Source: Candidatus Iainarchaeum sp. (GTDB taxonomy: Archaea; Iainarchaeota; Iainarchaeia; Iainarchaeales; GCA-2688035). From it: a stretch of 32,954 nucleotides of DNA. The stretch covers positions 1 through 32,954 of the forward strand of contig JAFCCO010000014.1 in the NCBI GenBank assembly GCA_017610175.1, in the 5' to 3' direction. The notes below the pieces were generated by a model. That model saw only the letters and a list, made by a program, of their open reading frames with translations. It was not told the origin of the DNA and searched no databases. The position numbers were made by a program, and so were the translations under genes. Position 1 is the first letter of the stretch, and each line of letters opens with the position of its first letter. Positions 922 to 30,168 of the stretch are shown in pieces.

Positions 922-1026
922 ATGAATCCTTGTGATGAATGTTTGGCTGATTGCAAAAGATGTATTTTGCGGGATGCGGTTAATGCGTTGGAGCGGATTG
1001 CGGTTGCGTTGGAGGAAAAGAAATGA
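922..1026 (+). CDS. Small Cys-rich protein (34 aa)
   Basis: MNPCDECLADCKRCILRDAVNALERIAVALEEKK; ATGA overlap with the next gene. Confidence 0.65.
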   Translation: MNPCDECLADCKRCILRDAVNALERIAVALEEKK

Positions 1027-1718
1027 GTGAACGAGTTTTCATAATAATGCCTGCGTTCAACGTTGAAGACCAGCTTGCAGAAACCGTTGCAAAGATTCCA
1101 GCGGGTGTGTGTGAAAAGCTAATTATTGTAAACGATGGAAGCAAAGACAACACTTTAAAGATTGCAAAGAAAATAAGCGGAACAGATTTTGAGGTTCAGG
1201 TAATAGACCATAAGAAAAATCTTGGATATGCGTTGGTTCAAAAGCGTGGGTACAGGGAGGCTTTGAAACAGGGAGCGGACATAATGGTGTTACTGCATGG
1301 GGATGGCCAGTATGCTCCAGAGTTTATTCCTTTGCTTCTTAGCCCGTTGCTTAAAGGAACGGCTGACGTGGTTCAGGGAAGCCGGATGCTTGGCGACCCG
1401 TTGGCTGGCGGAATGCCTTTTTACAAATATGTTGGAAACAAGATTTTAACGGGTTTTGAAAACCTTGTGCTTGGGCTTAACATGTCGGAGTTTCACAGCG
1501 GATACATTGCTTACTCTAAGAAAGCTCTTGGTGTTGTACCTTTTGAGGATATGGAGAACTGTTTTCATTTTGACGGGGAGATGATTATTTCAGCAAACAA
1601 AGCAGGGCTTAGAGTGGAAGAGGTTCCAATTCAGACAATTTATGCGGGAGAAAAAAGCAACCTTAATCCGTTAAAGTATGGCTTAAATGTTATTAGGGTT
1701 GCGTTAAAGTATTGGTGA
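1023..1718 (+). CDS. GT2 glycosyltransferase, polyprenol/dolichol-phosphate sugar synthase (DPM1-like)
   Basis: IIMPAFN, IIVNDGSKDNT, HKKNLGY, LHGDGQY, DVVQGSR and EFHSGY motifs. Confidence 0.93.
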   Translation: MSERVFIIMPAFNVEDQLAETVAKIPAGVCEKLIIVNDGSKDNTLKIAKKISGTDFEVQVIDHKKNLGYALVQKRGYREALKQGADIMVLLHGDGQYAPEFIPLLLSPLLKGTADVVQGSRMLGDPLAGGMPFYKYVGNKILTGFENLVLGLNMSEFHSGYIAYSKKALGVVPFEDMENCFHFDGEMIISANKAGLRVEEVPIQTIYAGEKSNLNPLKYGLNVIRVALKYW

Positions 1719-1724
1719 TTTGTT

Positions 1725-2210
1725 TTGAAGCTGTTGGGAGATTATGCGAGGGCAAAGCGGTTTAACAAAATTTTAAAGCATGTAAATTTTGAGGACGTTG
1801 TTCTTGACTTGGGTTGTGGTAAGGACATGTGCAACACTAAGAAGTTGAGAACTCTTGGATTTAACTGCATTGGAGTTGACTTAAACGGTGGAGATGTTGT
1901 AGCTGACGCAAGGTGCCTTCCGTTTGAAGACAACTTTTTTGACACAGTTCTTGCAATAGAGGTCTTGGAACATGTTGACTGTGTAAAAGAAATATGCAGA
2001 GTTTTAAAGCCAAACGGTTGGCTTATTGCGACCACTCCGAATCCTGCGTTGGACTGGATAATTCACGTCTTTGAGGGGCTTGGATTAATTTACCCCAACG
2101 TTACGCCTCACAATAACTTGTTACGGCTTAAAGACCTTCCAATGAAACTTATAAAATTTGACTGGATGTTCTTTCACATAACTCAGTTTGGGGTTTTGGC
2201 CAATGATTAA
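1725..2210 (+). CDS. Class I SAM-dependent methyltransferase (Methyltransf_11-like)
   Basis: VLDLGCG, GVDL, DARCLPFEDNFFD, EVLEHV and RVLKPNG motifs. Confidence 0.92.
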   Translation: MKLLGDYARAKRFNKILKHVNFEDVVLDLGCGKDMCNTKKLRTLGFNCIGVDLNGGDVVADARCLPFEDNFFDTVLAIEVLEHVDCVKEICRVLKPNGWLIATTPNPALDWIIHVFEGLGLIYPNVTPHNNLLRLKDLPMKLIKFDWMFFHITQFGVLAND

Positions 2211-3387
2211 GCGAAACGAAACTCTTTTGCTTTTCTTATTAATCTTGTTAGGCTTTTCGTTGCGTTTTGCTGGAAGCGTTTACTTTCCAATGTGGGCGGG
2301 GCCTGACGAACCGGCTCACTTTGTTTACATTCAGCACATTGCAGAACACGGTGTCCCGAACTTTGTTTTAACGAAGGAAATCATTAACGACAGCCTGTAT
2401 TACATCAGCGTGTTTGAGCCTCCACTGTATCACGCTTTGCTTTCATTGTTTCCATTAAACCTTTATTTTCTAAGGCTGTTTTCTGTTCTGTTTGGAACTG
2501 CAGGAATTTTTGTAACTTATTTGATTGCGAAGCGTCTTGGGTTTAATGCAGGAATTAGGCTTGCGAGTGCGGCTTTTGTTGCGTTGCTTCCAACGCATGT
2601 AATAGTTAGCAGCGTGGTAAACAACGGTTCTCTTGTGTGGCTTTTTTGTTTAATAACAATATACTTTTCAATTTTGGCTCTTGAGGAAAGGAAGGCAGTT
2701 CACGTTGCTTTGGTTGGGGTGTTCTTTTCTCTTGCTGTTTTAACAAAGCTCACTGCGTTAAGCCTTGTTCTAACTGTGGCAATCGTGTTGGGAGTGTATG
2801 TTTTCAAGAGCAGGGGTCATGTGTTGAAAAAACTGGCAGTGTGTTTAATTCCGTTGGCAATAGTTCCTGTCTTTTTGAGAAACCTTGCAACAACTGGTGG
2901 GTTGATGCCAAGCATGTTGAGCAAGCCGTTTAACCTTTCGTTTAGCTGGCTGTTGTACTATATCACTCACTTGTTTTCAGGAGTGTGGCTTCAAGAGTAC
3001 GGAGCGGCAACGGTTCCAGACTATCGAATTTTGTTCTTTGCGTTCTACGCAGTTGTTTCGCTTGTGGCGTTGGTTGGGTTTGTTCACTTTTTCTTTACTA
3101 AGTTAAGTTTAAGAAAAAGGTTTATGACATTTTCAGTTTTAATTTTGCCAGTGTTGTTAAACTTTGCCGGAGTAACTTACTTGAACACCTTTTGCCTTTG
3201 CCCTGATGGAAGAATGTTATTTGACACGATTGGCCTGGTGGCAATTTTGTTTATGGTTGGGTTGTTTGGAGTGCGAAAGAAATCTAAACTTGTTTTGTTT
3301 GTTCTTTTAACAATGTTTCTTTTAGACTTGGTTGTTTTAGTAAATTATAATGCGGTGTTGCCAGAAGTGATTTGGAGTTTATTATGA
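2188..3387 (+). CDS. GT-C fold membrane glycosyltransferase (ArnT/PMT-like); probable start ~2203
   Basis: Multi-TM protein with PDEPAH, EPPLYH, LRLFSVLFG and LAVLTK motifs. Confidence 0.85.
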   Translation: MGFWPMIKRNETLLLFLLILLGFSLRFAGSVYFPMWAGPDEPAHFVYIQHIAEHGVPNFVLTKEIINDSLYYISVFEPPLYHALLSLFPLNLYFLRLFSVLFGTAGIFVTYLIAKRLGFNAGIRLASAAFVALLPTHVIVSSVVNNGSLVWLFCLITIYFSILALEERKAVHVALVGVFFSLAVLTKLTALSLVLTVAIVLGVYVFKSRGHVLKKLAVCLIPLAIVPVFLRNLATTGGLMPSMLSKPFNLSFSWLLYYITHLFSGVWLQEYGAATVPDYRILFFAFYAVVSLVALVGFVHFFFTKLSLRKRFMTFSVLILPVLLNFAGVTYLNTFCLCPDGRMLFDTIGLVAILFMVGLFGVRKKSKLVLFVLLTMFLLDLVVLVNYNAVLPEVIWSLL

Positions 3388-3472
3388 TATATACTGTTGT
3401 TTACGGGGGGGGAAGAAAAATGTTTAGGTTGTGGGATAGGTTGTGGTTTGCTTTGAGGACTGGTGTTAGAAA

Positions 3473-3910
3473 ATGAGGGATGTTTTGGTAATTGGCAACG
3501 GTGTTTCTGAAACGCTGATGGTGTTGAACGATTTGGCAAAGTTTAGGGTGGCGGTTTCTGTTACTGTTCGGCCTCACCAGATGCGAAAGGATGTTGGAGC
3601 GATTGCCGAGCATGCGGCTCGTTTGGTTTTGGATGTGGTTGTTGACCGGCGGCAGGAACTCAACGAGCAGATGGTTTCTCACAACGTGGTTTTGACTTTG
3701 TTTAATGCAACTGGCAGCGGAACTTATTCAAGCGTGGTTTTGCAGGCGATTGGCTGCCGTTGCCCTGTTTTGATTTACTGCTTTAACAGGGAGACGGCTG
3801 ATGTTTTGTTTAAGAACATGCGGAAAACAGGCGAAAGGAATTTTGCAATTGAGGCCCGTATTGTTTCTTCCCCTGAACAGCTTGAAGAGGATGTGTTGGT
3901 ATGGTGCTGA
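3473..3910 (+). CDS. Rossmannoid protein, possibly SLOG/YspA-like nucleotide-binding
   Basis: N-terminal VLVIGNG; LNEQMV..VLTLFNATGSGT resembles SLOG RNxxMV..LIAxWDGxSxGT. Confidence 0.5.
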   Translation: MRDVLVIGNGVSETLMVLNDLAKFRVAVSVTVRPHQMRKDVGAIAEHAARLVLDVVVDRRQELNEQMVSHNVVLTLFNATGSGTYSSVVLQAIGCRCPVLIYCFNRETADVLFKNMRKTGERNFAIEARIVSSPEQLEEDVLVWC

Positions 3911-4059
3911 AGGGAGCTTATGATGGCGGCTTTGAGTTGTGCCGTTGCCTTCGATGCGGGTACAGCTGGTTTCCTAAAAAGGAAGGTGAGCCAATTCGTT
4001 GTGCCAACCCGGAGTGCCATTCTCCTTACTGGAACAAGGCGCGGGTGCGAAATGAATGA
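3901..4059 (+). CDS. Zn-ribbon protein typical of archaeal viruses (52 aa)
   Basis: Manual translation ...CLRCGYSWFPKKEGEPIRCANPECHSPYW... Confidence 0.85.
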   Translation: MVLKGAYDGGFELCRCLRCGYSWFPKKEGEPIRCANPECHSPYWNKARVRNE

Positions 4060-4157
4060 TTTGCACCGAATGCGGGAACGCAGAGTATTTCATTTTTGAA
4101 GAGAACGGGGAAGTAATTTGTTCTCACTGTGGGACGGTGGTGAAAGCTGTGCGCTAA
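4056..4157 (+). CDS. Stand-alone TFIIB/TFB-type zinc ribbon (33 aa)
   Basis: MICTECGNAEYFIFEENGEVICSHCGTVVKAVR matches the TFB N-terminal CPxCG...xGExxCxxCGxV pattern; ATGA overlap with the previous gene. Confidence 0.75.
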   Translation: MICTECGNAEYFIFEENGEVICSHCGTVVKAVR

Positions 4158-4176
4158 AGAAAAGAAAGTAAAGTTT

Positions 4177-4467
4177 GTGAAACCGGTTAATATAATTTCT
4201 TCGGTTTGCTTTCCCCTGCTTCCAGGCGAACACATAGATTTGGAAACCGCTTTAAGTTGTGTTAAAGAAAGTAGAAAATTTAACAGCTGTTATATTAACG
4301 AAGCGTTTCACAACCTTTGTTTGAAGGGAGAGGGTGTAACAATTACTGTAACTTACAAGGGTAGTTGTAAGATTTTTTCCCTAATGTCAGAGCGTGAAAC
4401 GGAACGTTTTTGCTTTGATTTGTGGGCTGATTTTTTTAAAAAAAATACGGTAAAACAAACACTATAA
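4177..4467 (+). CDS. Single-repeat TATA-binding-protein (TBP)-like protein
   Basis: VNIISS~VNIVAS, IDLE~LDLE, YINEAF~YEPEQF, VTITVTYKGSCKIFSLMSERE~VTFLIFSSGKIVITGAKSEEE; only one TBP repeat in 96 aa. Confidence 0.72.
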   Translation: MKPVNIISSVCFPLLPGEHIDLETALSCVKESRKFNSCYINEAFHNLCLKGEGVTITVTYKGSCKIFSLMSERETERFCFDLWADFFKKNTVKQTL

Positions 4468-4542
4468 TTTAAATACCCTTATGGAGTTTGTATAGCTTGC
4501 CCTTGTTTTAAGGCATTCTGTTGGGGGCAAAAAATTCGTTAT

Positions 4543-4576
4543 ATCGTTAAGGGAAGTTAGGTGCATATATATGTAC
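4543..4576 (+). promoter_or_regulatory. Putative late promoter motif upstream of the major capsid gene
   Basis: ATCGTTAAGGGAAGTTAGGTGCATATATATGTAC; a near-identical copy is on the minus strand at 25009-25041. Confidence 0.75.
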
Positions 4577-4593
4577 CAAAATGGTGAAATCGA

Positions 4594-4830
4594 ATGGAGG
4601 GAAACATCGTGGACAAGCTGGAAACAAGAGGACAGATTAATGTTGCGGCTGCTGCTATTGGAGCTATAATCGGTGTTATTGGAATCATAATCTTCGCAGA
4701 AGTTTATGACGGCCTTAACACTACACAAGTTTCAACCAGTGCAACCAATCTGCTTGATCTTGTAGACTTGCTGCTTGCTGCGGTACTAATTATAGGTATC
4801 GTTGCGCTCATGGCCTTCATCCGAAGGTAA
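4594..4830 (+). CDS. Major capsid protein, spindle-shaped virus type (SSV1 VP1/His1-like)
   Basis: Two hydrophobic helices with a short linker containing NTT; SATNLLDLVDLLLAAVLII resembles SSV1 VP1 TNATLLNLVPLFYILVLII; has its own promoter and terminator. Confidence 0.85.
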   Translation: MEGNIVDKLETRGQINVAAAAIGAIIGVIGIIIFAEVYDGLNTTQVSTSATNLLDLVDLLLAAVLIIGIVALMAFIRR

Positions 4831-4847
4831 TGAGGTGGCATAAGCCA

Positions 4848-4882
4848 GCGCCTCTTGCGGGGGCGTTCCTTTGTTTTTTTTT
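4848..4882 (+). terminator. GC hairpin plus T-tract after the MCP gene
   Basis: CGCCTC-TTGC-GGGGGCG followed by T9. Confidence 0.65.
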
Positions 4883-4897
4883 GTGAGGTGTTAGAAA

Positions 4898-5245
4898 TTG
4901 CTTGATGTGATATTTTATTTGCAGGTTGCGTTCTTTGCCGTGCTTTTGCTTTACGGTTTTTGGAGCAAGTCGCCTGCTGTGTTTGCTTTGGCTGGTGTGT
5001 TTTCAATTTTAACCGGTGTAATGCTTGTTGGTGAAGGGCTTGACATTCCAACAGGGTATGAGATTTCTGGGGCGGATGATAATGTAATGCAGGTTTCTGA
5101 AACTTATTCGACTTACTTTACTTTTAATTCGGGTGCTGTGAATATGTGGCATTATGTTTTGTTGTATGGTGGGTTTGTTTGGTTGATTGTTGCGGCTGTG
5201 CTTGCTAAGAGAGGGCATGAGGTGGGTGTGGATGTTGGCGAGTAA
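4898..5245 (+). CDS. Small multi-TM virion/membrane protein
   Basis: Three hydrophobic segments; GAGGTG RBS before a TTG start. Confidence 0.8.
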   Translation: MLDVIFYLQVAFFAVLLLYGFWSKSPAVFALAGVFSILTGVMLVGEGLDIPTGYEISGADDNVMQVSETYSTYFTFNSGAVNMWHYVLLYGGFVWLIVAAVLAKRGHEVGVDVGE

Positions 5246-7874
5246 GCTGGTTGTTTGCGCTTTCCTGTTGTTGTTTTGTTCGCAGGCTTTTGCTTTTTTT
5301 GGTTTGTTTGAGCGGCAGATGCCGCCAATAATTATTAACAATCTTGATGTTAATGGAGAGGATGTTAATGTTAACAATTTGTGGGCTGTAAACATTGATG
5401 CTAATTCTATTATTGTGGATTTTTTGGTTGGGAGAAACTATATTGATTTGAATATTTTGAATGATATTAATGCAAGGAATGCTGGTTTGACTGGCCAGCT
5501 TTGGGTTGGGGGGGGTTCGTTTTTTGGTGGGGATGTGAATGGTGCATACGATATTCGGGCTAAACAGTTTCTTTGGGCGGAAGGTGGAAAGCTTTGCACT
5601 GCAACGCAATGCTATGATATTGCTTTGGATTTAAATTTTTTTAGAAGCGAAGCAGACTTGAACACAATTGGCTTTGTGCCGTACGTTGGTGCTGGTTCAA
5701 ACGTTGACCTTGGAGCGTACGACTTTGCAACAACAGGCTCAGGTAGGTTTGACAGATTGGGCTTGAATGCCACAGTTGACCCACTCATTCAAATAAAAGG
5801 AATAATGTCTGCTACAGATAATTATGCGATTAATTTTGACGGTACAACAAATCCCTATACTGGGGATATAGATAATGTGCTTGCCCCTAAAGGTTTCAAA
5901 ATGCACAGAAAGTTTACAGGGAAGCCATATTTTGCGGCAACGTTTCCGATAGTAAACGATTTCCTTATTGATATGGATTTTGACACAAACCCAGGGGATG
6001 ATGTTCTGTCTTACTTAACCGCTTTTAGGAATGAAATTAAAATGCAAGCCAATTTTGCTCAAAGCGGTTCTCTTACTATGAGACCAATAGTTTCAGAAAA
6101 TATATTTGAGCCAGGAACTTCTACTTTTGGGGATGATGACTCTGTTGCGATTACGGGGGCGGGGAATGCAACTTTAGAATTTATATTAAGCGAAAATAAA
6201 CTGGGAAATAACAGCGCTTTTAGCAATATATTTACATTAAATAAATCAAGCGGCACTGTTACTATTACAGATATTGGATTGAACGTTTTGAATGGGTCAA
6301 AGTTTGCATCTCTGGATGCAGGAGCAACCGTAAACAGAACCAGTTATGTGGCGAAATTGAGTGGGAAAGGATACTCAGATGCCCAGTTTTCTGGCACAGA
6401 TAATATTACTTCAACCCGATACGGTTTGTACATAGACAATATCACAGGAGCGAACAATAATTACGGAATAGTAATAGCTCAAGATGACGTAGGTCTTACT
6501 TTAGGGGCTGGGAAAGAGGCAACTCTTTTAGGTTCGGCAAGCGGTTTTGAAACAACGTCAAACTTTCAGGCACGAGACTTTAACGGAACAAATATGGCTT
6601 TGGACGGCGGGCTTACTTTGAATGGCACCCCGTCTGTAATAGATTCGCCTAACGAAATTCATGTAAAAGCAAACGGTGACTTAGACGACTATATTGCTTT
6701 TGTTACTGCGGGAGGCTCTACAAAGATTGATGCTGTTGGAAGCACACTCTATTTTGATGCAGACGGTTCGGGAATGAATTTTTTAAACAACGACCTTTCA
6801 AACATTGCAACTTTAAATACTGTAGATTTGGTTGCATCTGACGATATATCGGCAGGCGGAAAAGTTACAGTTAATACTTCTGGTTCAGCACAAGATTACT
6901 TAACGCTAAACGGCTCAATTGGAGGAAGCCCACCAAGTTCAATACGAGGCGGTGGAATTAGTTTAAGTAATGGGGCGGGGATTGTTGGGCAGATGTATGC
7001 AAATTTAGATTATAGATTCGTGTGGGACACCACTAAGCAAGCTTCAAGTACGGACACTGGGAATGCGTGGCTGAACCTGCAAACAGGGGCGGTTTCGTTT
7101 GCAGGGCACAATTTTACGATAAGTAGTACAGGGCAAACGGCAATAGATGGCGACAACGTAAAGCTTCTTTTAGGAGAGGCTGGCGATGCTTCACTTTACT
7201 ATGATGCTGTGAATATGTTAATTAACCCAAAAGAAGTTGGAGGCGGAATACTCAAAATTTTGGGGGATGTAAACGCAGAAACGGCTTACTTTGAATCTGC
7301 CAAAATTGGAGATTTAACAAATTTCACTAACTTTGCTTCTGATGGGCGACAAACAATGCTGGGAACAGCAAGGTATAAACTAGGTTTTGAAATTGATAAT
7401 TCTGGATTTAAAGAGCCACCTGCTCAGTCTGCTACTTTAGTGAATAGGGGAATTGGAACAGCTTATGAATTTTCTGACGGGCAAAGTGAACACATTCATG
7501 CTGAGATACGAATTACTGGCAGATGGGTGGATACAGAGGACTTGACTGTTATTTTGTTGTGGGATAGTCCAACAGTTTCAGAAGATTGCAACTGGGAAAT
7601 AACGTATTTGTTTAGAACATTCGATGAAGATATGAGTGAAGAGAATACAGAAGGAACTATATCCTGCCTAAAAACAAGTTCAAGCAATGCAAACGGATTG
7701 GTTCATTCAACTTGCACGATTCCAACAATAGATTTTAACCCAAATGATAAAATACTTCAATTAGAGATTTGGAGAAACGGAGACGACCCAGCTGACACAT
7801 TAGGAGACAGTGCTTATCTTCACACTATGATTATTCAAGGAATTGCTGACGAGTTGGGTGGAGTAGTAACTTAG
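5232..7874 (+). CDS. Large secreted beta-rich fibre/adhesin-like protein (~880 aa)
   Basis: Signal peptide MLASKLVVCAFLLLFCSQAFA after a GAGGTG RBS; rich in G/N/T/S/D; mosaic composition. Confidence 0.8.
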   Translation: MLASKLVVCAFLLLFCSQAFAFFGLFERQMPPIIINNLDVNGEDVNVNNLWAVNIDANSIIVDFLVGRNYIDLNILNDINARNAGLTGQLWVGGGSFFGGDVNGAYDIRAKQFLWAEGGKLCTATQCYDIALDLNFFRSEADLNTIGFVPYVGAGSNVDLGAYDFATTGSGRFDRLGLNATVDPLIQIKGIMSATDNYAINFDGTTNPYTGDIDNVLAPKGFKMHRKFTGKPYFAATFPIVNDFLIDMDFDTNPGDDVLSYLTAFRNEIKMQANFAQSGSLTMRPIVSENIFEPGTSTFGDDDSVAITGAGNATLEFILSENKLGNNSAFSNIFTLNKSSGTVTITDIGLNVLNGSKFASLDAGATVNRTSYVAKLSGKGYSDAQFSGTDNITSTRYGLYIDNITGANNNYGIVIAQDDVGLTLGAGKEATLLGSASGFETTSNFQARDFNGTNMALDGGLTLNGTPSVIDSPNEIHVKANGDLDDYIAFVTAGGSTKIDAVGSTLYFDADGSGMNFLNNDLSNIATLNTVDLVASDDISAGGKVTVNTSGSAQDYLTLNGSIGGSPPSSIRGGGISLSNGAGIVGQMYANLDYRFVWDTTKQASSTDTGNAWLNLQTGAVSFAGHNFTISSTGQTAIDGDNVKLLLGEAGDASLYYDAVNMLINPKEVGGGILKILGDVNAETAYFESAKIGDLTNFTNFASDGRQTMLGTARYKLGFEIDNSGFKEPPAQSATLVNRGIGTAYEFSDGQSEHIHAEIRITGRWVDTEDLTVILLWDSPTVSEDCNWEITYLFRTFDEDMSEENTEGTISCLKTSSSNANGLVHSTCTIPTIDFNPNDKILQLEIWRNGDDPADTLGDSAYLHTMIIQGIADELGGVVT

Positions 7875-15926: not shown

Positions 15927-18900
15927 TTATCCAGCACCCCGCCTATATAAAATTGCCGCAAACACAGCAAGCCCTGCCAAAGCAGTTAAAATTGGTGGAA
16001 CCCAATTCAAGTAAGTGAACATTGCCATCTCAATCATTACAATTATTCCAATCGCACTCATATCGGTTGTTAGCCCAACCCCAATTGCAACAACTGTTGC
16101 AATTATTATGAAAGAAGAAAGCATTAGCAAAAAAAAGCAAGGTTCTCCAGGCTCATTCATGCAGCCAAACTGCGACCTAAAAGCCGCACTGCTTAACTGA
16201 ATAACCAAATCGTTTGAACCAGCTCCGAAAACGTACAGTGAATAACTTGATTCCCTAATTAGCCCATTTTCAGTTTCAACAAAAACCGTTACAACAATTG
16301 GAGTTTCGTCAATTAGGCTTGCGTAAGGAATTGTAAAACCACAAGTTGTACCACAAGATTGGTTTGCGTCAATGTTTGAATCAAAAACGTTACTATATCT
16401 AATATAAGCCCAACTGCTTACAATTGTTCCGTTGGTGTCAATTGAAACATTTACATCACCACCGGTTGAACTGTATTCCAAATAACCCTTGCTTGGAACA
16501 ACTTGAATTGCAACATACTCCCAAGGAGGCGCTCTTTGAGTTATTTCAGTTGTGTCAAGATAAACATAATAACCAGTAAAATTTATTTTCAAAGACTTGG
16601 TGAACAAAAATCCACCATCTGAATCATAAAAATCAAAGTCATAATCGTTGTCAACCAAAAACGAAAGCGAAGCCGTTCCGGAATCGTCAGTTGCAACGCT
16701 TTGAACTTCAACACGGCCTTCTCCTGTAATTGATTTAAACGATTTGATTAAAATGTTTGGAACGGTTGACAAGTCAGAAGTGTCAAGAGTGTAAAACGCA
16801 GCAGTTATTCCGTCAACAGCCTTTGGCAAATACATTTGAATTACATCGGTTTGAGGCGCTCCCTTATAATTAATTTCGCGCTTTCGAGTAAGGTAAGTGT
16901 TTCCCCCGTTTAAGTCAAGCTGGTAATACGACAAAGTGTTTGGCAAAGCGTGGAAAAACACCGGAGCGGTTTTTCCCGAAAACGAAACGCTTCCAGTTCC
17001 CCTAACATCCAAATCAAACGGTGAAACAGCCGACAAGTCATCCTCATCCTTTGGAATTTCAAACTTTACAATAACCATATTGTAGTCGTAAACTTCGTAA
17101 TTGTTGTCGTATATTCTGAAAAAATAGTTTACATCCTGGTTGTTTACAAAGAACGAAACCTTTCCAGCAGAATCCGTTTGCCTTCTCTCTGAAACGTTTA
17201 CGTCAGGCAAACGCAGTTCAATAATTGTATTTGGTAAAATAGTTGTTCCCGGTGGATCGTAAAACATAAACTTATCAGTTTGGCCGTAAATGTCTTGCAA
17301 AAGCGTAACGTTTAAATCAATTACTGAAAACTGGTTTACGTCTTTCCAAAACCATTCACGGGTTGTGTACGTTCCAGAAGTTTCAGCCCTAATTGTATAA
17401 TCTGCCGTTGAAATGTTGTTCAAGTCCAAGTGCAAAAGCCCACTCGAAGTCGAGTCAGCCGAACCGTTTACAGTTAGCGTTCCAGGATCGATTGAACCGT
17501 GAGTGTTCTCATCCTTAAACATTAACTGCAACCGGCCTTCCTCAACAGCAAACGTTATGTTGGAGTCGTCAGTTATGTCATTTCCAAAAACGTCTGACCC
17601 AAACACCCGGTACGTTACCTCCCAGCTTCCAGCATAAGGCAGCAAAACATTTGCGTTCTGGTCGCTCGACTGCAACACATTGTTTCTATACCATTCAAAC
17701 GAACTCGTTGAAACGTTGTTGACATCGCTTGCATCGGAACCAGCAATTTGCACAACCACCTTTGAACCAGAAACAACCTGTGATCGAGCAAATGAAAAGT
17801 CTGCGTTCAAGTCAATGGTTTCAACCTCAAACGTTGCGTCACTGTCGTCATATTGAGAAAAAACGCTGTCAGCAATCTTTACAATAACCTTCCAATCTCC
17901 AAAGATTGCGGGAACCGTCCAAGAATAGTGGCAAATGTCTGAAACCGAAAAGTTGTTGGTGTCACAGAAAACCTCGCTCGAATCAGTGTTCACATCATCA
18001 ATTATTTCAACCGTTTCACCAGACTTAAAATAATTAATATCAATTAACAAAGTGTTGTCGACATCGCTTTGAACCTCAAAATTTATGTCAACCGTTTGCG
18101 AAACAATGAACACCTCGCCACCGTTCGGAGCCAAAACGTTTACGTCAATTCCTGAAAAAGTCTCCTGCACTCCGTAAGTCTGCAAGGCGCCCCGCTCTGA
18201 ATTATAAATAAGCAATGCTTCGTCATCAGACAGTTCCTTTGTAAAAAACTTCAATGTGTCAACCACCCCATCCAAAACTCCGCCTGTTGCCCCAACATTA
18301 AATTCAGAAATACTTCCACCGTCAATTGTTCCCCGTGGTTGGTTTAAAACGTTTCCGTCAACAGTTGAACCGTTTACATAAATCTTCATCCTGTTGTTTG
18401 AATTGCTATAAGTTGCAATCACATGATACCAAACGTTTGCGTCAAAAGTTTGCTTTGACGTAACCGCATTAGCCGTTCCATTTACTCCCTCAGTTGTTCT
18501 GAACATAATTCCAAGCTGGTCAGAAGCATCATAATCACGCCAACCTAAAGCAATATAGTTAGATGCAGCCAAATCCTTTTCAAAAAACAACTGCGTTGCG
18601 TTCTTCGTGTCATCCCAAACATTTGGCCGCTGTGCCCACAAAGAAAACGAAAACTCGTCATAGGTTCCAGTTGACATGAAAGTTGAAGAGCTTGAAAGAG
18701 AAGCCAAATAGCTTGTTGCGTTTGCGTGTTTTCCAACGACTCCCGGCCGCGTTCCAGCTCCATGAAGCAAAGCGTTTCCACCCGTTGCCCTGTTGTTCGC
18801 AATTGCCGAACTTGACGATTCGTTCATATCCCAAACCGTGTTATAGTCTGGTGTAAATGTTGCGTTTGAGTCAGCCAAAGGCGAAGCCGCCACATTCCCA

Positions 18901-19808
18901 TAATAAATATTAAAATTTATGTTTGCCGAAGCATCAAACGTGTCAGTTACCCGAACCCACGCAATCATATTTTGGTCAGAGTAATCCCAACGCTCTAAAT
19001 AAAACTCCAACAAAGCGGAATCGGTTCCGTCAACAAACCGAATGTCCTTTCCTGAAGGGTCAACAGTTAACCAAAAGTTCGTTTGCTCGGAGTTAAAGTC
19101 AACTAACACAACATGGTCTGTTGTAACGTTTCCAGAAAGCCAGGACGAAGTCTTTAATAAAATGTTCTTTTTAGCCCTCCAATTAGTGTCCCACCAATCC
19201 CACTCTGAAATCTCTTCTCCCAAAAATGTTGGAATCCAGTCAACGCTGTTCTCTCCCAAAACCGCTTTCTTCTTTCCCCAAACCCGCAGCCTGTAAGTTT
19301 CACCCTTTAAAGCTTTAAACCCATAAAAATTTCCAACCTTTTCCCAACGGCTTTCAACGTGGCTTCCACAAACCTTTCTAACGTTTCGAGAACAACTACA
19401 TTCACCTGCCACCTTTCCATCAACGCAACCTATACTCAAGCAAGAACTCTGATTCAAGTCACCAAAACCAAATGTAAAATATTCCAGCTCAATGCAGTAA
19501 TCGTTCACTTGAAAGGAACGCTCTTTAAAAACGTCAACTCCAAAATCCTGCAACCCAGGCGACTTAGCCGAACGCTTTGCAACATCAAAACCAAACTGTG
19601 AATCGTTCTGCAAAGAAACGGTTCTATTAAAACTCTCCGCACTCAAGTCCCACTCAATCCACGCCTCACAGTCTACAAGGCAGGAATCTGTGTTTGACAA
19701 AAGAGTAAAACGGCTGTTGCCAATGTTTTTAACGTCCAAAGTGGCAGCCGCGTAGCTAACCAAAAAGAGCGTGAAAAACGCTACTGCTAAGTAGGCAAAT
19801 CGCTTCAT
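15927..19808 (-). CDS. Large membrane-anchored adhesin/terminal-fibre protein with DUF2341, LamG/concanavalin-like and Ig-like domains
   Basis: Signal peptide; DIRFVD..LLEFYLERWD..AWVRV..IYYGN (DUF2341); FSFSLW..WYHVIATY..KIYVNG (LamG); 3 C-terminal TM segments. Confidence 0.88.
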   Translation of the reverse strand: MKRFAYLAVAFFTLFLVSYAAATLDVKNIGNSRFTLLSNTDSCLVDCEAWIEWDLSAESFNRTVSLQNDSQFGFDVAKRSAKSPGLQDFGVDVFKERSFQVNDYCIELEYFTFGFGDLNQSSCLSIGCVDGKVAGECSCSRNVRKVCGSHVESRWEKVGNFYGFKALKGETYRLRVWGKKKAVLGENSVDWIPTFLGEEISEWDWWDTNWRAKKNILLKTSSWLSGNVTTDHVVLVDFNSEQTNFWLTVDPSGKDIRFVDGTDSALLEFYLERWDYSDQNMIAWVRVTDTFDASANINFNIYYGNVAASPLADSNATFTPDYNTVWDMNESSSSAIANNRATGGNALLHGAGTRPGVVGKHANATSYLASLSSSSTFMSTGTYDEFSFSLWAQRPNVWDDTKNATQLFFEKDLAASNYIALGWRDYDASDQLGIMFRTTEGVNGTANAVTSKQTFDANVWYHVIATYSNSNNRMKIYVNGSTVDGNVLNQPRGTIDGGSISEFNVGATGGVLDGVVDTLKFFTKELSDDEALLIYNSERGALQTYGVQETFSGIDVNVLAPNGGEVFIVSQTVDINFEVQSDVDNTLLIDINYFKSGETVEIIDDVNTDSSEVFCDTNNFSVSDICHYSWTVPAIFGDWKVIVKIADSVFSQYDDSDATFEVETIDLNADFSFARSQVVSGSKVVVQIAGSDASDVNNVSTSSFEWYRNNVLQSSDQNANVLLPYAGSWEVTYRVFGSDVFGNDITDDSNITFAVEEGRLQLMFKDENTHGSIDPGTLTVNGSADSTSSGLLHLDLNNISTADYTIRAETSGTYTTREWFWKDVNQFSVIDLNVTLLQDIYGQTDKFMFYDPPGTTILPNTIIELRLPDVNVSERRQTDSAGKVSFFVNNQDVNYFFRIYDNNYEVYDYNMVIVKFEIPKDEDDLSAVSPFDLDVRGTGSVSFSGKTAPVFFHALPNTLSYYQLDLNGGNTYLTRKREINYKGAPQTDVIQMYLPKAVDGITAAFYTLDTSDLSTVPNILIKSFKSITGEGRVEVQSVATDDSGTASLSFLVDNDYDFDFYDSDGGFLFTKSLKINFTGYYVYLDTTEITQRAPPWEYVAIQVVPSKGYLEYSSTGGDVNVSIDTNGTIVSSWAYIRYSNVFDSNIDANQSCGTTCGFTIPYASLIDETPIVVTVFVETENGLIRESSYSLYVFGAGSNDLVIQLSSAAFRSQFGCMNEPGEPCFFLLMLSSFIIIATVVAIGVGLTTDMSAIGIIVMIEMAMFTYLNWVPPILTALAGLAVFAAILYRRGAG

Positions 19809-21285: not shown

Positions 21286-24200
21286 CTAAAAAGCAAAAGG
21301 CCAAGCCTTGCCCTTCCCTCCTCCTTTCTTTCTTTTATGCTTTTTCTTCTTTCGTTTAGAAGGCTTCAAAGCAAGAGCCTCCAAGCCCTTTAAAGTAATT
21401 CCCGCATACTCTCCAGGTTCGTCAATTCCATACTTTGATTTTTCAACCATTGCCCCTTTCAAAACCCTTGACTTTGGCAACCTAAACATTTTTTCCCAAC
21501 CTTTCGGCAAAGAAGGTGCTTTTGCCTTCTTACCTCTTTTCTTAGAAGGAATAACTCTCATTGATCTTGCAGGAGTTCCAATTGCAACACTTGCCGCAAA
21601 CTGCCTGGCAACCTCTTTATAAGTTGCGGGAGAAACATCAATCCATTTTCCTCGCCTGCGAACCTGTCCAATAAAACTTGGCTTACGTTTTCTGCGCTTT
21701 CCTCTACTCTTTTGTTTTGAATAATCATCCATATACGGTGAAGGAATCTTTGAATAAAACGGGTAAGGGTAAGGCGAAGTGTACGGACTTGAATACGGTG
21801 AACTGTAAGGCGATCTATAAGGTGAAGTGTAAGGCGAACTATAAGGTGAACGGTAAGGAGATTTGTAAGGTGATTGATACGGTGAACGGTAAGGAGATTT
21901 ATACACCGACTTTGAAGGAGAAATATAAGAAGAAACAATGCTTGGGTACGGTGAACTATACCTTGAAACACTTTTGCTTGGACTGCTAACAACTGAAGGG
22001 GAAGAAACATAAGAAGATGCAACTGAAGAAACAAGGCTTTCATTGTAAGAACTTGCACTGGTTATTTTTCTCAAAGCACTTGAAGCAGAAGATTTTGCAA
22101 CACTCGACACCGCAAAAGGAACAAACACCGTTGAAGCAACGCTTGAAATTGCCTTGCTTGGACTCATATAAACAGAAGCGCTTGGAACATACGCTGATCC
22201 ACTACGAGAAACAACCTCTGAAATAGAACGCCCCACCTTCCTTGAATAATAACTACTTGGATAACTTGAAACCTCAACCGTCTTTCCAACCGAAGGCTTT
22301 ACAGAACCCGCTCCTGCAACTGGAGAAAGCCCAACCTTATACAATTGAATCATTTGATACCGACTACCTAAAGGAGAAGACTCCCAAAGGCGAGTTAACA
22401 ATTTGCTCTTAGTAACAAAAACAGGCGCTTGCAATGTTTCCTTAAAAAAGCCATAACCCAAATACTTTTCCTTTGTAAGAAAAGAACCAGCAAAACCACC
22501 AGGAGGCGCCCAAGCCTGAGTCGCAGCAGTTGCAACAGTATGCTGGCCTTCAACACTTGCACCAAGCAAGTTCATTGGATCAACCTGTTTAATTCCAGAC
22601 TTACCCCACCAAGTTTTCAAAGAAGGAATAAGCCCCTTGCCAGACCGAATCTTAGTATAACCCAAAACACTTTGTTCCAAATATGCTTTGCCAGTTGCAG
22701 GAAGCAACTGAATTTGCCCTGAAGAACCTGAATATCCTTTACCCGCTCCAATGTACCCTCCATAAATTCGGTAAAGCTCTGGATCTTTTGGAGGAGGCGC
22801 ACTAAAATAAAAAGGCTGATGCCCCAAACTACTGCGCAAACCCATAGCCTCCCCTGGTTGATAAGTCAACAAAGTAGTCTTAGAAGACTTTCCCAACTCA
22901 CCAAAAGCAGTTTTAACCTGCCCACTTTTAAGCTTTGAAAAGAAACGAGAAGCACGGCCTGGAAAAAGGTTTGCATAACTTGCGTGTGCGCCAGAAGTTT
23001 TCTGCCCAACTAAAGACTTTAACTGTCCAGGCGTTTGTTCAACAGTATAACTTGGAACAAGCTCTATCCTTTCAGCGCCACGATAAGCTCCCAAAAACTT
23101 TCTGTCAAGCACACCCTTTGTAATGCGAGAACTGATTCTTGTTCCGGGAAACTTAAAAGCAGTAACAAGCCCAACACCTCCAGCAACAAGCCTTGCCATT
23201 TCAGCCTTGCCTGCCTTTCCATCCAAATAAGGATAATGTTCTGCCGGTAATGTTCCAATCTCAAGCTTTGTAGGTTGTTCAAAAGTCAAAATAGTTTTAA
23301 AAAAAGGCTTTGTTTTTACAGCTTTGCGGCCAGTGAAAAAAGAAACAACCGGATTCACAACAGGATCAGCAAAACCAAAACCCAATTCAACAGGTGTTTT
23401 AAAAACAGTTTTTTGTTCCTTCTCAATTATTGAAGGCATATTGCCCCAAAACTGTTTGTAATATTGCACATTCTGCCTTGCACCCTCAATAGAAGGAGGC
23501 GGGTGCAAATCCAAACCAACAGACTTCAAAGCCTCTGTTCCAGTTTCATAAGCAAAACCAACCCCATAAGAAGCTGCTCCAAAAATAGTTCCCTGAACAC
23601 CTCCAGCAATGCCTCCGGAAATACCTCCAAGCGGGCCACCAATTGAACCAAGCCCTGCTCCAATCAAACCCCAAGAACCAGCAGACGTTCCAACGTGCCG
23701 AGAAATCACACCAGCATCAAGCGGAAACTGTGAAACATAACCCGGCTTTCCACCAATCTTTGAAACCAAAGGCGGCTTTCCAGTTCTCGGATCAGTCATC
23801 CACATAGAATCAGCCTCTTTTGCAAACTTATATTTAGACTGAGCAACATCCTCCCAACCAGCAAAATGCTCACCAACAACAGGCGGGCCTACCAGCTCTT
23901 CCCGCTCAACAACCCTTGCAGACATCTCCTTAGCAGAACGCAAACCTGCTCCAGGATCAGTTGAAAAACTTGACCGAGTTGAAGACGGTGCAACAAACGT
24001 AGAAGTTTTTTGAGTCGGAGGAAACTTTGAAACCTTAGCAGCAGCAATCTGTGCCTCCTTTCCAGAAATTTCAGCCATGTCATTATAGCGAGAAATTCCA
24101 CGATTCAACTCAAGAGAAGCTTTTTTATAAGCCGCAACTCGCTCATTATAACCTCGAATAGAAGCTGTTGGAGAACGCCCCGCAGCAATATCAGCCTCAA

Positions 24201-24717
24201 GCCTTTCACGAGAAGCCACAAGCCCTTCCCTTTGCACTTCTAAATCTTTACTCTCAGACTTAATCTGTTCACCAACAGCACGCAACTTTTCAACATTAGT
24301 AGTAAAAGTTTTAGTAGCCTGATATACCCCGCCTTCAAAATGTTCAGGCCGCACACGCTGAGAAGTAGAAACTCCAATCTCCTGAGAAATACGCCTTGCC
24401 TCAAGCTCAGAAAAACCACGCTTTAACAAAGCCTCCTTCAAAGTTGGCGCACCCGCAACATCAGAACGCAACTCCTCCGCAGGAATATCCTTAATCGAAG
24501 AAAGCAACCGAACCTTTGAAGAAACACTACCCCCCTCTTTCCCACCAACAAAACCACTTGAACCAACTCCACTGCTCGGAGTCCAACCCGCTTGTCTTGG
24601 ATCACCATAATAAGCTCGGCCCTGAGTTTGTTCATACGCTTGAGCGTGTCTAAAAGAAGTAGCCTGCCTACTTTCCTGCCTGGCACTCATCTCATCTGCA
24701 CGCTCACGAGAAACCAT
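21286..24717 (-). CDS. 1143-aa low-complexity virion protein (coiled coil, Gly-zipper, Ser-rich region, SPYx repeats, basic tail); possible internal/DNA-delivery protein
   Basis: ORF track; domain pattern read from composition; function is an inference. Confidence 0.8.
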   Translation of the reverse strand: MVSRERADEMSARQESRQATSFRHAQAYEQTQGRAYYGDPRQAGWTPSSGVGSSGFVGGKEGGSVSSKVRLLSSIKDIPAEELRSDVAGAPTLKEALLKRGFSELEARRISQEIGVSTSQRVRPEHFEGGVYQATKTFTTNVEKLRAVGEQIKSESKDLEVQREGLVASRERLEADIAAGRSPTASIRGYNERVAAYKKASLELNRGISRYNDMAEISGKEAQIAAAKVSKFPPTQKTSTFVAPSSTRSSFSTDPGAGLRSAKEMSARVVEREELVGPPVVGEHFAGWEDVAQSKYKFAKEADSMWMTDPRTGKPPLVSKIGGKPGYVSQFPLDAGVISRHVGTSAGSWGLIGAGLGSIGGPLGGISGGIAGGVQGTIFGAASYGVGFAYETGTEALKSVGLDLHPPPSIEGARQNVQYYKQFWGNMPSIIEKEQKTVFKTPVELGFGFADPVVNPVVSFFTGRKAVKTKPFFKTILTFEQPTKLEIGTLPAEHYPYLDGKAGKAEMARLVAGGVGLVTAFKFPGTRISSRITKGVLDRKFLGAYRGAERIELVPSYTVEQTPGQLKSLVGQKTSGAHASYANLFPGRASRFFSKLKSGQVKTAFGELGKSSKTTLLTYQPGEAMGLRSSLGHQPFYFSAPPPKDPELYRIYGGYIGAGKGYSGSSGQIQLLPATGKAYLEQSVLGYTKIRSGKGLIPSLKTWWGKSGIKQVDPMNLLGASVEGQHTVATAATQAWAPPGGFAGSFLTKEKYLGYGFFKETLQAPVFVTKSKLLTRLWESSPLGSRYQMIQLYKVGLSPVAGAGSVKPSVGKTVEVSSYPSSYYSRKVGRSISEVVSRSGSAYVPSASVYMSPSKAISSVASTVFVPFAVSSVAKSSASSALRKITSASSYNESLVSSVASSYVSSPSVVSSPSKSVSRYSSPYPSIVSSYISPSKSVYKSPYRSPYQSPYKSPYRSPYSSPYTSPYRSPYSSPYSSPYTSPYPYPFYSKIPSPYMDDYSKQKSRGKRRKRKPSFIGQVRRRGKWIDVSPATYKEVARQFAASVAIGTPARSMRVIPSKKRGKKAKAPSLPKGWEKMFRLPKSRVLKGAMVEKSKYGIDEPGEYAGITLKGLEALALKPSKRKKKKHKRKKGGGKGKAWPFAF
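21760..21905 (-). repeat. Degenerate 12-bp coding tandem repeat encoding (S-P-Y-x)n
   Basis: SPYRSPYQSPYKSPYRSPYSSPYTSPYRSPYSSPYSSPYTSPY. Confidence 0.9.
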
Positions 24718-25004
24718 TAATCAGCCCCCGCTAAATAGCCAGCCTCAACCGGATCATCAAAATACTTCTCACCATAAATCTGCTCGTAAAGTTTACCGTG
24801 CCTCAAAGACATTGCTTGAGTTTCTTTCAAACGAAAAATAGTGGCTTGCTTTTCAACAGACAATAGCTTTCCCGACACAAACAAAAATTCTTCATCTGGC
24901 AACGTTGGAACTTCCGGCTCAGGTTCAACAAACAGGCTGGCAAAAAACACTGCGCCAGCAAAAAACAGGCAAGCAATTAAAACAAAAACAAAGATGCTTT
25001 TCAT
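24717..25004 (-). CDS. Single-TM protein, first gene of the minus-strand structural operon
   Basis: N-terminal TM; directly downstream of the shared promoter motif. Confidence 0.75.
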   Translation of the reverse strand: MKSIFVFVLIACLFFAGAVFFASLFVEPEPEVPTLPDEEFLFVSGKLLSVEKQATIFRLKETQAMSLRHGKLYEQIYGEKYFDDPVEAGYLAGAD

Positions 25005-25008: not shown

Positions 25009-25041
25009 GTACATATATAGAGCGTAACTTCCCTTAGCGAT
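25009..25041 (-). promoter_or_regulatory. Second copy of the putative late promoter motif
   Basis: Minus strand reads ATCGCTAAGGGAAGTTACGCTCTATATATGTAC, compared with 4543-4576. Confidence 0.75.
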
Positions 25042-26937: not shown

Positions 26938-27326
26938 AGTTCCTTAAAGAGTGGGAATACCTCCAACATATTGAAATGTGCGGAGGCGCACTAAAAATAA
27001 TCGCGCCCTATGGAATAAACTCAATTGTTTTAAAGCACCTCTTTAGAAATTCTGGAGGTCTTCCAGTAAAAATTATTTCTCAATCAAAACAACCGCTTCT
27101 TGAATCACACGGTTTTGAAATTAGAACTTGGAGTAATATGCATGCCAAACTATTTCTCGGAACAAACGGCGCGATATGGGGTAGCTGGAATTTCAATATG
27201 CAGCATCAGCGCAAATCAACACTGCGAGAAATTGTTGAGTACTGCCAAAAAAACGAACCAAAATATGAAGCGCTCAACAACCAATTCAACTACTATTGGG
27301 AACAATGTGCAGGGTGGCAAAAATGA
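26934..27326 (+). CDS. Single-domain phospholipase D (PLD)-superfamily protein, putative nuclease
   Basis: IIAPY...MHAKLFLG....WGSWNF. Confidence 0.72.
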   Translation: MKFLKEWEYLQHIEMCGGALKIIAPYGINSIVLKHLFRNSGGLPVKIISQSKQPLLESHGFEIRTWSNMHAKLFLGTNGAIWGSWNFNMQHQRKSTLREIVEYCQKNEPKYEALNNQFNYYWEQCAGWQK

Positions 27327-29476: not shown

Positions 29477-29565
29477 GGTGGATAGGGTGTTTTACCCTAA
29501 AGGAAGAGGTCAGCCCAAAGAGAGGATTGGAAAAAACCTTTTCTCCTACGCCACCCTGTCCAATT
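29458..29565. other. Candidate replication origin (inverted repeat/iterons)
   Basis: Perfect 15-bp inverted repeat AATTGGACAGGGTGG (29458-29472) / CCACCCTGTCCAATT (29551-29565), plus a third copy TGGATAGGGTG (29479-29489), at the end of the primase gene. Confidence 0.6.
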
Positions 29566-29765: not shown

Positions 29766-29983
29766 TGGAATTTTATAATTTAATTTTGTTTGCTTTTGCG
29801 GTGTTGGCTTTTTTTGTTTTGGTGTTTTTTTCAAGTGTGGGTGCTGTGGAAATGGGTGGAATTATTGGGGTTGTTATTTTGATGGGTGGTGCTTCTATTG
29901 CGGTTAATTTTGCTTTTTCTGTTAAGTTGTGGGATAAGTTGAAGTGTATTGAGGAAAAGGTTGAGGAGGCGAAGGGCGAATGA
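29762..29983 (+). CDS. Small 2-TM protein ending EAKGE
   Basis: ORF track. Confidence 0.7.
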   Translation: MMEFYNLILFAFAVLAFFVLVFFSSVGAVEMGGIIGVVILMGGASIAVNFAFSVKLWDKLKCIEEKVEEAKGE

Positions 29984-30168
29984 ATGGCAGTTTAACGTTG
30001 GGGCAGTATATTGCGGTTGGTTTGTTGTTTGTTACACTTGGTGGTGTGTTGTATTGGGGTTTTACTTTAGATATTAGGGGTTTGAATGGTGCGTTTGTTT
30101 CATTTGTTCTTTTTTGTGTGTTTGCTTTGATTAGTTCGCCAGATAAAGAGGAGGCGAAGGGCGAATGA
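29980..30168 (+). CDS. Small 2-TM protein ending EAKGE
   Basis: ORF track. Confidence 0.7.
   Translation: MNGSLTLGQYIAVGLLFVTLGGVLYWGFTLDIRGLNGAFVSFVLFCVFALISSPDKEEAKGE

Follow-up and report, generated by a model that had tools for sequence, protein, structure and literature searches.

A single-lobe TBP-domain protein of an archaeal virus-like element, encoded beside a TFB-type zinc ribbon and ahead of a putative structural module

Proteins that consist of one free-standing TBP domain were described in 2013 as monopartite TBP-domain proteins of Thermococcales (82-136 aa) and, under the name TbpA, of Halobacteria, and their function is unknown (Brindefalk et al., PMC3597702). According to two reviews (PMC5569661, PMC9501531), archaeal viruses depend on the TBP and TFB of their hosts, and earlier reports (10.1101/2021.07.29.453957, PMC13700489, PMC4372165), in the parts that treat such genes, record only scattered viral genes for TFB and full-length TBP. 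These are TFB homologues in some rudiviruses, in WyrdV1 and related elements and in JinchiV1 (10.1101/2021.07.29.453957, PMC13700489), and a TBP encoded by ANMV-1 (PMC4372165). Here we analyse a 32,954-nt stretch of DNA, contig JAFCCO010000014.1 of the Candidatus Iainarchaeum sp. assembly GCA_017610175.1 (the window, at its full length), in which a 96-aa open reading frame (ORF) related to one lobe of TBP follows a 33-aa TFB-type zinc ribbon just ahead of a putative capsid gene.

A tblastn search with the host TBP also found annotated TBPs in HRTV-9 (gp39, 179 aa) and HJTV-2, and because 81-84% of the host TBP was matched, these proteins are two-lobed. HRTV-9, HJTV-2 and ANMV-1 thus resemble the present case in encoding a TBP homologue, but they are tailed viruses of an unrelated group. 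Among eukaryotic viruses, the TBP/TFIIB pairs of large DNA viruses and the TBP mimics of herpesviruses, as presented in PMC7221094, are alike in concept only (a TBP-like factor with a TFIIB-like partner, serving late genes), and these TBP-like factors are two-lobed or large proteins. A literature search returned no virus-encoded single-lobe TBP family and no stand-alone viral B-ribbon, although entries of this kind could stand in the supplements to PMC7221094 and to the Asgard-virus papers.

By profile and synteny comparisons we show that the window's 96-aa ORF is homologous to a TBP lobe and its 33-aa ORF to the TFB ribbon, that the former belongs to a virus-associated family of ~100-aa TBP-lobe proteins, and that genes of this family lie after a small ribbon gene and ahead of a structural module. 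An initial annotation made from the sequence alone had proposed a mini transcription-initiation module at this place. The genes concerned are:

3901-4059, plus strand: Cys-rich ORF of 52 aa (CRCLRCG...RCANPEC), its stop overlapping the ribbon start (ATGA)
4056-4157, plus strand: stand-alone TFB-type zinc ribbon of 33 aa (MICTECG...CSHCG), with CX2CX15CX2C and GEVIC..CG.V
4177-4467, plus strand: single-lobe TBP-domain protein of 96 aa with a GTG start, a diverged member of the virus-associated family
4594-4830, plus strand: putative His1-type capsid protein of 78 aa with two hydrophobic segments (~residues 15-38 and 53-76), at the head of the plus-strand block

A family of single-lobe TBP relatives

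A HMMER scan of 1.84 billion representative proteins with the 96-aa protein gave 12 matches at E<=0.001, and ten of these (84-109 aa, including the query) were kept as alignment A1; P0013 (1363 aa) and P0014 (358 aa) were left out because their matches covered only ~30 residues. The closest homologue, P0004, matched at E 1.3e-20 with 48% identity and the weakest kept, P0012, at E 1.1e-4. A profile search brought 29 of 265 candidates to E<=0.001, all of them 84-139 aa long, unnamed and without a precomputed Pfam domain. The resulting family, aligned as A3, comprises 32 unannotated proteins of ~100 aa with a median isoelectric point of 9.2, compared with 7.6 for the window's protein, which by alignment is the most diverged member.

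Comparison of the A1 profile with all PDB sequences gave 30 rows at E<=10, and the first 26 are TBP entries, headed by 1mp9_A (E 8.1e-8; five rows at E<=0.001). The titles of 25 of these read TBP, TFIID or a TBP fusion, and 4wzs_D appears simply as 'ECU04_1440 protein'; below them come two ParM entries, NF6 and alanine racemase, all four with E >=0.79. PF00352 was matched at E<=0.01 by 23/32 members (best 3.8e-5) and DUF3378, which we take to be the N-terminal domain of RNase HIII, by 7/32, the window's protein being in neither group. In the host genome (1.24 Mb), searched in six frames with A3, the only matches besides the gene itself were the two TBP genes (E 9.5e-4 and 2.3e-3). When 58 lobes from 29 TBPs of the host's lineage were scored on the family profile, all reached 8.7-20.4 bits (medians of 17.7 for N lobes and 15.5 for C lobes), and the best of 1160 shuffled lobes reached 9.3. 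The family is very probably a true homologue of TBP lobes, and the window's 96-aa protein shares this homology as a family member. The initial reading of the ORF as one TBP repeat is upheld by the profile matches to TBPs in the PDB and the host genome together with the shuffle control.

It could be objected that the two ORFs are not real genes, or that their similarity to TBP and TFB is accidental: both are short, the Pfam model matched by the ribbon (PF08271) is weakly specific, and the 96-aa protein has no Pfam match when taken alone. Against this stand homologues with E down to 1.3e-20 in the protein scan, a conserved synteny (see below) and profile matches that, with the shuffle control, are restricted to TBPs. 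We give chance almost no weight, and for the 96-aa ORF we judge it refuted.

The 96-aa chain contains one lobe only, not the two tandem lobes of TBP. Family members fit the description of monopartite proteins (<150 aa and not a truncated TBP), with their own start and stop codons and flanking genes in all loci, and a search for fused or longer forms among proteins of 245-2000 aa found none, which is weak evidence. Prediction of a two-copy complex of the 96-aa protein with A3 gave scores of 0.31, 0.35 and 0.31, against a mark of 0.42 and controls of 0.00, and weighs neither for nor against a homodimer.

Alignment with hhalign and MAFFT places N5 ('VNI') on the strand-1 Asn of TBP and F44 ('NEAF') on the stirrup Phe; for this Phe and for Arg105 we assume the yeast numbering. 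The placement of both residues in the initial annotation is therefore right, and F44 is conserved, but Asn5 is not. Ravarani et al. (PMC7221094), whose residue scheme we follow, assign yeast F116 to L5.1 and describe the Glu residues at C.L3.2 and C.L3.4 as contacts of TFIIB. The key positions are:

Position 5 (strand-1 Asn): Asn in 2/32 and Gly in 21/32 family members; Asn in the window's protein
Position 40 (L3.2 equivalent): Phe, Tyr or Ile in 32/32; Ile in the window's protein
Position 41 (adjoining): Asp in 30/32; Asn in the window's protein
Position 42 (L3.4 equivalent): Glu in 29/32; Glu in the window's protein
Position 44 (stirrup Phe): Phe in 32/32; Phe in the window's protein
Position 50 (Arg105 equivalent): Lys in 30/32; Lys in the window's protein
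Position 59 (L5.1 equivalent): Phe in 30/32; Thr followed by Tyr in the window's protein, Ser in P0004
Positions 62 and 63 ('GK' turn): Gly in 32/32 and Lys in 31/32; Ser at 63 in the window's protein
Position 68: Gly in 29/32; Ser in the window's protein

The family thus resembles TBP (PF00352) at the level of the lobe, from strand 1 to helix 2, with the stirrup Phe, the L5.1 Phe (in the family), the 'SGK' turn and the helix-2 hydrophobic residues in common. It differs in consisting of one ~96-aa lobe, in a four-residue insertion after strand 1, in the poor conservation of Asn5 and in the replacement of the L3.2 Glu.

Genomes of the host's order (0.5-1.5 Mb, sizes that suggest a small-genome archaeal host of the DPANN kind) carry a second family of chromosomal single-lobe TBP-domain ORFs, 87-109 aa long (loci L014, L015, L017, L018, L019, L068, L069 and L072). 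Six were scanned with PF00352, and all but L072 (21.9 bits) exceed the cut-off of 22.9 bits, at 24.8-32.6 bits. Matches of the viral family's profile in the order (E ~1e-6) turned out to belong to this cellular family, apart from one RNase H-like fusion and a single unrelated ORF, and were set aside. Of three cellular ORFs scanned in NCBIfam, two (L018 and L069) show a weak match to a MoeB/ThiF-family model in its C-terminal part; judged by eye, a neighbouring ORF at L015, L068 and L069 resembles aIF5A, and a 239-aa ORF at L016 combines a TBP-like N-terminal domain with an RNase H-like part. The cellular proteins are of the same size as the viral ones and share with them a motif, F.(F)LPK.K..LDL, that is absent from TBP, but they lack the DE.F stirrup that the viral family has in common with TBP and lie in cellular neighbourhoods. 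The Brindefalk proteins, compared by their published description only, are likewise single free-standing domains distant from the organism's TBP, but are chromosomal and euryarchaeal, whereas the viral family was found only on virus-like contigs, beside zinc-ribbon genes.

These relationships bear on a different view of the lobe protein, namely that it has a TBP-like fold outside transcription initiation: a viral copy of the cellular single-lobe family that would bind duplex nucleic acids or proteins in a general way, in replication, packaging or anti-defence, the ribbons being generic zinc fingers of the small kind that is plentiful in archaeal viruses. The shared motif and the DUF3378 matches favour it, as does the finding that 27/32 viral members score higher on a hidden Markov model (HMM) of the cellular single-lobe family (median 22.6 bits) than on one of TBP lobes (11.0). 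The stirrup speaks against it, being specific to TBP and the viral family; the evidence from the ribbons follows below. Either the cellular single-lobe proteins or a lobe of TBP could have given rise to the viral family. A 'pre-duplication relic' is not favoured by these data, and the resemblance to a pre-duplication TBP suggested at first finds no special support in them, given that 27 members lie nearer the cellular HMM.

Among the phylum's other 214 genomes no viral-type family member was found, which fits a gene of a mobile element, and the best matches of the single 96-aa protein in 61 related genomes had only E>=0.0016. Searches of IMG/VR viral contigs gave no relatives of the 96-aa protein or the putative major capsid protein (MCP), and none with A1, A4 or A6; A4 and A6 found none among species-representative genomes. 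In phage records, tblastn with the putative MCP, P0025 and the 96-aa protein found nothing, and P0025 had only a chance-level match (E 0.2) in plasmid records. For P0025, a feature-based protein atlas gave no more than leads, all scoring <0.9: a cluster of 104-aa archaeal hypothetical proteins (0.87) and two ~90-aa clusters that partly match PF00352 (0.84 each), one of them with viruses as half of its taxon-assigned members.

Zinc ribbons and the entrance to the structural module

We accept the 33-aa ORF as a TFB-type ribbon on its sequence matches. Pfam PF08271 Zn_Ribbon_TF gives it 31.7 bits against a cut-off of 29, and the Rrn7 ribbon model 28.7 bits against 27.1; its top NCBIfam match is TFIIB PRK00423 (positions 15-43, E 1.6e-4), and its top PDB match is 1pft, 'TFIIB' (E 6.8e-4, with the runner-up at 0.11), a B-ribbon that has the same Cys spacing and GEVIC motif. 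Against the ribbon of the host's 303-aa TFB it aligns without gaps at 13/27 identical residues (48%), GEVIC..CG.V included. PF08271 by itself is weakly specific, since it matches in 11/14 control genomes, bacteria among them, and an unrelated host ORF of 453 aa, whose ribbon is C-terminal, reaches 33.6 bits. Taken together, PF08271, PRK00423, 1pft and the identity to the host TFB bear out the TFB N-terminal zinc-ribbon pattern noticed in this ORF at the outset. Like the viral TFB homologues described so far, it would represent the capture of part of a host initiation factor; here only the 33-aa ribbon is present. The 52-aa Cys-rich ORF upstream overlaps the end of a 145-aa ORF and has no match in Pfam or the PDB, and the small genes for the 52-aa, 33-aa and 96-aa proteins are tightly packed in one orientation (3901-4467). 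The host bin encodes one TFB and two canonical two-lobe TBPs of ~195 aa (contigs C21 and C15), each close to a contig start.

The 33-aa ORF has no B-reader, B-linker or cyclin core (two cyclin repeats), so the ribbon cannot position RNA polymerase (RNAP) by itself. This would suit a decoy or shut-off function, in which the ribbon blocks TFB at its dock on RNAP and the lobe protein caps host TBP or TATA boxes without recruiting TFB, with repression of host or early viral transcription as the outcome in place of late-promoter activation. The replacement of the acidic TFB contact at the L3.2 equivalent by an aromatic residue or Ile throughout the family would agree with this, and ATV RIP, a viral protein that imitates part of TFB, represses RNAP (PMC9501531). 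However, the family keeps both Phe positions and the basic residues of the sheet, which a pure protein decoy would not need, and for an activator the conserved position immediately before the structural module would be no less fitting. We regard a decoy as unlikely.

A scan of JGI metagenomes with the close subfamily A4 yielded 18 loci (L021-L038) from 505 pattern matches, 16 of them with sequence upstream of the lobe gene. An intact 38-50-aa ribbon ORF (RLRCPSCGSYRI.GDRFRFKCK.CGFIHD) lies within 350 nt upstream on the same strand in 10/16; L021 has a degenerate copy that has lost one Cys pair, L023 and L024 have a different upstream ORF with CxxC-x18-CxxC, and L029, L032 and L036 (the last with only 160 nt of upstream sequence) have no ribbon there. 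The genes for ribbon and lobe are separate in all relatives, and L025 and L033 have a small membrane ORF in between. The frame of the window's 96-aa ORF is indeed open upstream to 4144, as first reported; a fusion to the ribbon through a CTG start or a +1 frameshift, raised as a possibility on that ground, is set aside as unsupported, given the separate genes and, as weak evidence, the absence of fused forms from the search described above. The sequence TTGAAAGRGTTTTTTCTTC is strongly conserved right before the ATG of the lobe gene in L021-L038 (20 nt examined); before the GTG of the window's gene stands the dissimilar GAAAGTAAAGTTT.

Downstream of the lobe gene, 8/18 loci encode a 75-85-aa homologue of ORF 4594-4830 (43-51% identity), and the other ten end within 2.3 kb. 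In the relatives this gene is followed by homologues of the two next genes of the window:

4898-5245, plus strand: membrane protein of 115 aa, a conserved partner of the putative MCP (35-40% identity in six loci, partial in L023)
5187-7874, plus strand: protein of 895 aa, its N-terminus conserved with the giant proteins of the relatives and putatively adhesin-like

Longer contigs continue with homologues of the window's 170-, 195-, 236-, 144- and 309-aa ORFs. Because the structural module is collinear, the window and the 18 loci represent genomes of one virus group. The lobe gene is separated from the putative MCP gene by 87-126 nt in the window, L024, L033 and L035, and by 1.2-2.8 kb in L023, L029, L028, L032 and L022. 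In L022 and L032 this gap contains direct repeats of CATTTCTTTTTCGCCTCTTTT spaced 110-206 nt apart, whose reverse complement suggests Shine-Dalgarno and ATG contexts, as in an array of small minus-strand genes.

The 78-aa ORF, which begins 126 nt past the 96-aa ORF, agrees with the pattern given for His1-type spindle-virus MCPs, namely ~80 aa and two hydrophobic segments, with an adhesin gene and a conserved gene block following (10.1101/2021.07.29.453957), in its size, its two hydrophobic segments and its place at the head of the module. It has no match in Pfam, PHROGs, the PDB or phage records. The capsid assignment is thus an indirect one, as no sequence homology to known MCPs was found in these collections: the initial naming of the gene as MCP agrees with its size, hydrophobic pattern and position, and finds no counterpart in homology.

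The ribbons of the relatives were compared with the same models. No TF-ribbon model scored above its cut-off on ten of their proteins (nine ribbons of alignment A7 and the L023 CxxC ORF); the sole PF08271 listing stood at 14.2 bits, and the best PDB matches were PRT1 and RPC10 (E ~0.01). With hhalign, A7 matched the host TFB at a probability of 86%, and the 52-aa ORF at 2%. What is conserved, judged by these comparisons, is a small zinc ribbon beside the lobe gene; the TFB ribbon as such is not. The synteny test proposed at the start accordingly comes out in favour of the arrangement, with the lobe gene usually after a small ribbon ORF and ahead of the structural module, and with ribbons of a generic kind. 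That no TFB-specific signal is present in the relatives' ribbons adds to the case for a TBP-like fold outside initiation, as does the report that multiple non-orthologous zinc-finger genes are typical of spindle-type Asgard viruses (10.1101/2021.07.29.453957, in its account of that group). The adjacent ribbon in the window's own genome, being specifically TFB-like, counts against it. We consider a role outside initiation rather unlikely, while giving it more weight than a decoy.

A repeated motif and the layout of the element

The putative MCP gene and a second gene on the opposite strand are each preceded by a copy of a 34-nt motif:

4543-4576, plus strand: motif copy 1, TCGTTAAGGGAAGTTA-GGTGCA-TATATATGTAC
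25009-25041, minus strand: motif copy 2, TCGCTAAGGGAAGTTA-CGCTC-TATATATGTAC, ending 5 nt before ATG 25004
24717-25004, minus strand: ORF of 95 aa with a hydrophobic N-terminus, at the head of the minus-strand block of giant ORFs

The 12-mer TAAGGGAAGTTA occurs exactly twice in the window, at 4548-4559 (plus) and 25025-25036 (minus), and TATATATGTAC, adjoining it, also exactly twice, at 4566-4576 (plus) and 25009-25019 (minus); by our own arithmetic the expectation for two exact 12-mers is ~0.004. The large ORFs lie in two convergent blocks, each with a motif copy before its leading gene; the blocks run from 4594 to ~14.1 kb on the plus strand and from 25004 down to ~14.7 kb on the minus strand, with a switch in GC skew near 14 kb. 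The plus-strand block includes the 895-aa ORF, and the minus-strand one has giant ORFs at 15927-19808 (1293 aa; Laminin_G_3 and DUF2341) and 21286-24717 (1143 aa); they appear as two convergent structural blocks with a motif copy heading each.

The TA box of copy 1, CATATATATG at 4564-4573, is centred ~26 nt before ATG 4594. This is the usual spacing from TATA box to start, and the box fits the TATA box of a leaderless mRNA. Copy 2 ends 5 nt from ATG 25004, near which no later in-frame start codon exists, and its TA box therefore cannot be the TATA box of that gene. The proposal that TATATATGTAC acts as a late TATA box at both sites is thereby ruled out. The palindrome pointed out at 4564-4573 is present, but as C(AT)4G it is inherent to a TA repeat. 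In eight relatives the sequence upstream of the putative MCP gene is conserved, with CTTATAAA near -97, AATTTCAATGT..CATATAT at about -45 to -27 (CATATAT at about -33 to -27) and a TATAT.TGTAC(C/T) box that abuts the ATG and resembles copy 2 of the window; none of the 18 loci contains the 12-mer TAAGGGAAGTTA. Judged by sequence and position, the motif is a regulatory element common to both structural blocks, the parts of which do not map simply onto a B recognition element (BRE) and a TATA box.

The window is the entire contig C3 of an archaeal bin (1.24 Mb in 34 contigs, 90% complete). Its bases 1-114 are identical to 32841-32954, an exact direct terminal repeat of 114 nt that indicates a complete circular element of ~32,840 bp. 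The GC content is 41.4%, against 44.9% in the rest of the bin. The window is a virus-like element and probably a spindle-type archaeal virus. A search of the window for tRNA genes and an Rfam scan of 3300-5300 gave no match. Further features of the element are:

1023-3387, plus strand: cluster of glycosylation and methylation genes, comprising a glycosyltransferase family 2 (GT2) gene, an S-adenosylmethionine (SAM) methyltransferase gene and a gene for a PMT_2-type (dolichyl-phosphate-mannose protein mannosyltransferase-like) membrane protein
27296-29476: PrimPol-D5 helicase gene
29458-29565: 35-nt inverted repeat, 77% complementary, with a 38-nt loop
133-185, 331-376, 726-778, 892-924, 991-1021 and 32656-32688, also 29964-30365: repeated segments ending in ATG

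Homologues of the GT2 and methyltransferase genes, here found on a virus-like genome, are likewise present in related loci. The inverted repeat begins in the last 19 nt of the PrimPol-helicase gene and could be a terminator or an origin element. The repeated segments are 30-46 nt long (GGGGGCGGGAAATAAAGATG; AGGAGGCGAAGGGCGAATGA) and lie ~180-600 nt apart; they look like small-gene arrays with near-identical translation-start regions, and the repeats of L022 and L032 described above are their analogues.

A possible role in transcription initiation

The best explanation of the locus as a whole would be a regulatory set of the 52-aa Cys-rich, TFB-ribbon and TBP-lobe proteins that biases host initiation, to which we give an even chance; that the pair of lobe and ribbon acts on initiation in some way seems at least evenly poised and perhaps slightly favoured. 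In such a mechanism, the TBP-lobe protein would bind duplex DNA through its concave sheet, probably as a dimer, at TA-rich promoter regions of the virus, the ribbon would dock at the site on RNAP that is used by the TFB ribbon, and the two together would bias the host TBP/TFB/RNAP machinery towards the viral structural operons or time their expression.

Several observations weigh against this explanation. The 96-aa ORF alone has no TBP match in Pfam, NCBIfam or PHROGs and does not reach the PF00352 gathering score (cut-off 22.9 bits), so that the profile check against TBP, recommended initially, succeeds for the family in the PDB search and fails for the protein itself. The hhalign comparison of the family with TBP lobes without secondary structure is modest, with a probability of only 51% (E 1.5e-4, 70 columns). 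By its HMM scores the family is nearer to the cellular single-lobe TBP-domain proteins than to TBP, and the cellular HMM gives the window's protein 0.5 bits, whereas the TBP-lobe HMM does not report it. The window's protein also departs from residues common to family and TBP, with T59, S63 and S68 in place of F, K and G, and from the family with N41 and N46 in place of D and R. The second DNA-wedging Phe, conserved in the family and TBP, is thereby missing, and an ability to wedge DNA is less certain for this unusually diverged copy than for the family. The relatives' ribbons are, on the matches above, generic and not TFB-type, and homology between A7 and the window's 33-aa ribbon is not demonstrable (hhalign probability 10.6%). 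The motif is tied to the lobe protein by proximity only, and a late TATA box at both copies is excluded. Host assignment is by binning only, as no short matches exist between the window and the other contigs of the bin. The mechanism is consequently weaker for the window's copy, which lacks the L5.1 Phe and has the geometry of motif copy 2 against it.

The more specific activator model of the initial annotation, in which a lobe homodimer binds the TA box and RNAP is redirected, appears very doubtful to us. The same low standing applies to its fuller form as a two-gene 'mini pre-initiation kit', in which the homodimer would form a symmetric saddle on TA-rich viral promoters, the ribbon would link to RNAP or compete at its dock, and host RNAP would be switched to the viral structural operons. 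If that form were true, the kit would be a living functional model of the hypothesised homodimeric TBP from before the duplication.

Viral TBPs of full length and viral TFBs have been described before, as have single-lobe TBP proteins of cells. New here is a compact, conserved pairing in which a TBP relative of one lobe and a mini-protein with a zinc ribbon are encoded where a structural module begins, in a virus group absent from reference collections. The proteins, of ~100 aa and 33-50 aa, make up a small and tractable system, and they raise the questions of whether a single TBP lobe can dimerise into a working saddle, what role the long-known single-lobe TBP-domain proteins have, and how late genes are timed in an uncultivated archaeal virus, which are relevant to specialists in archaeal transcription and archaeal viruses alike.

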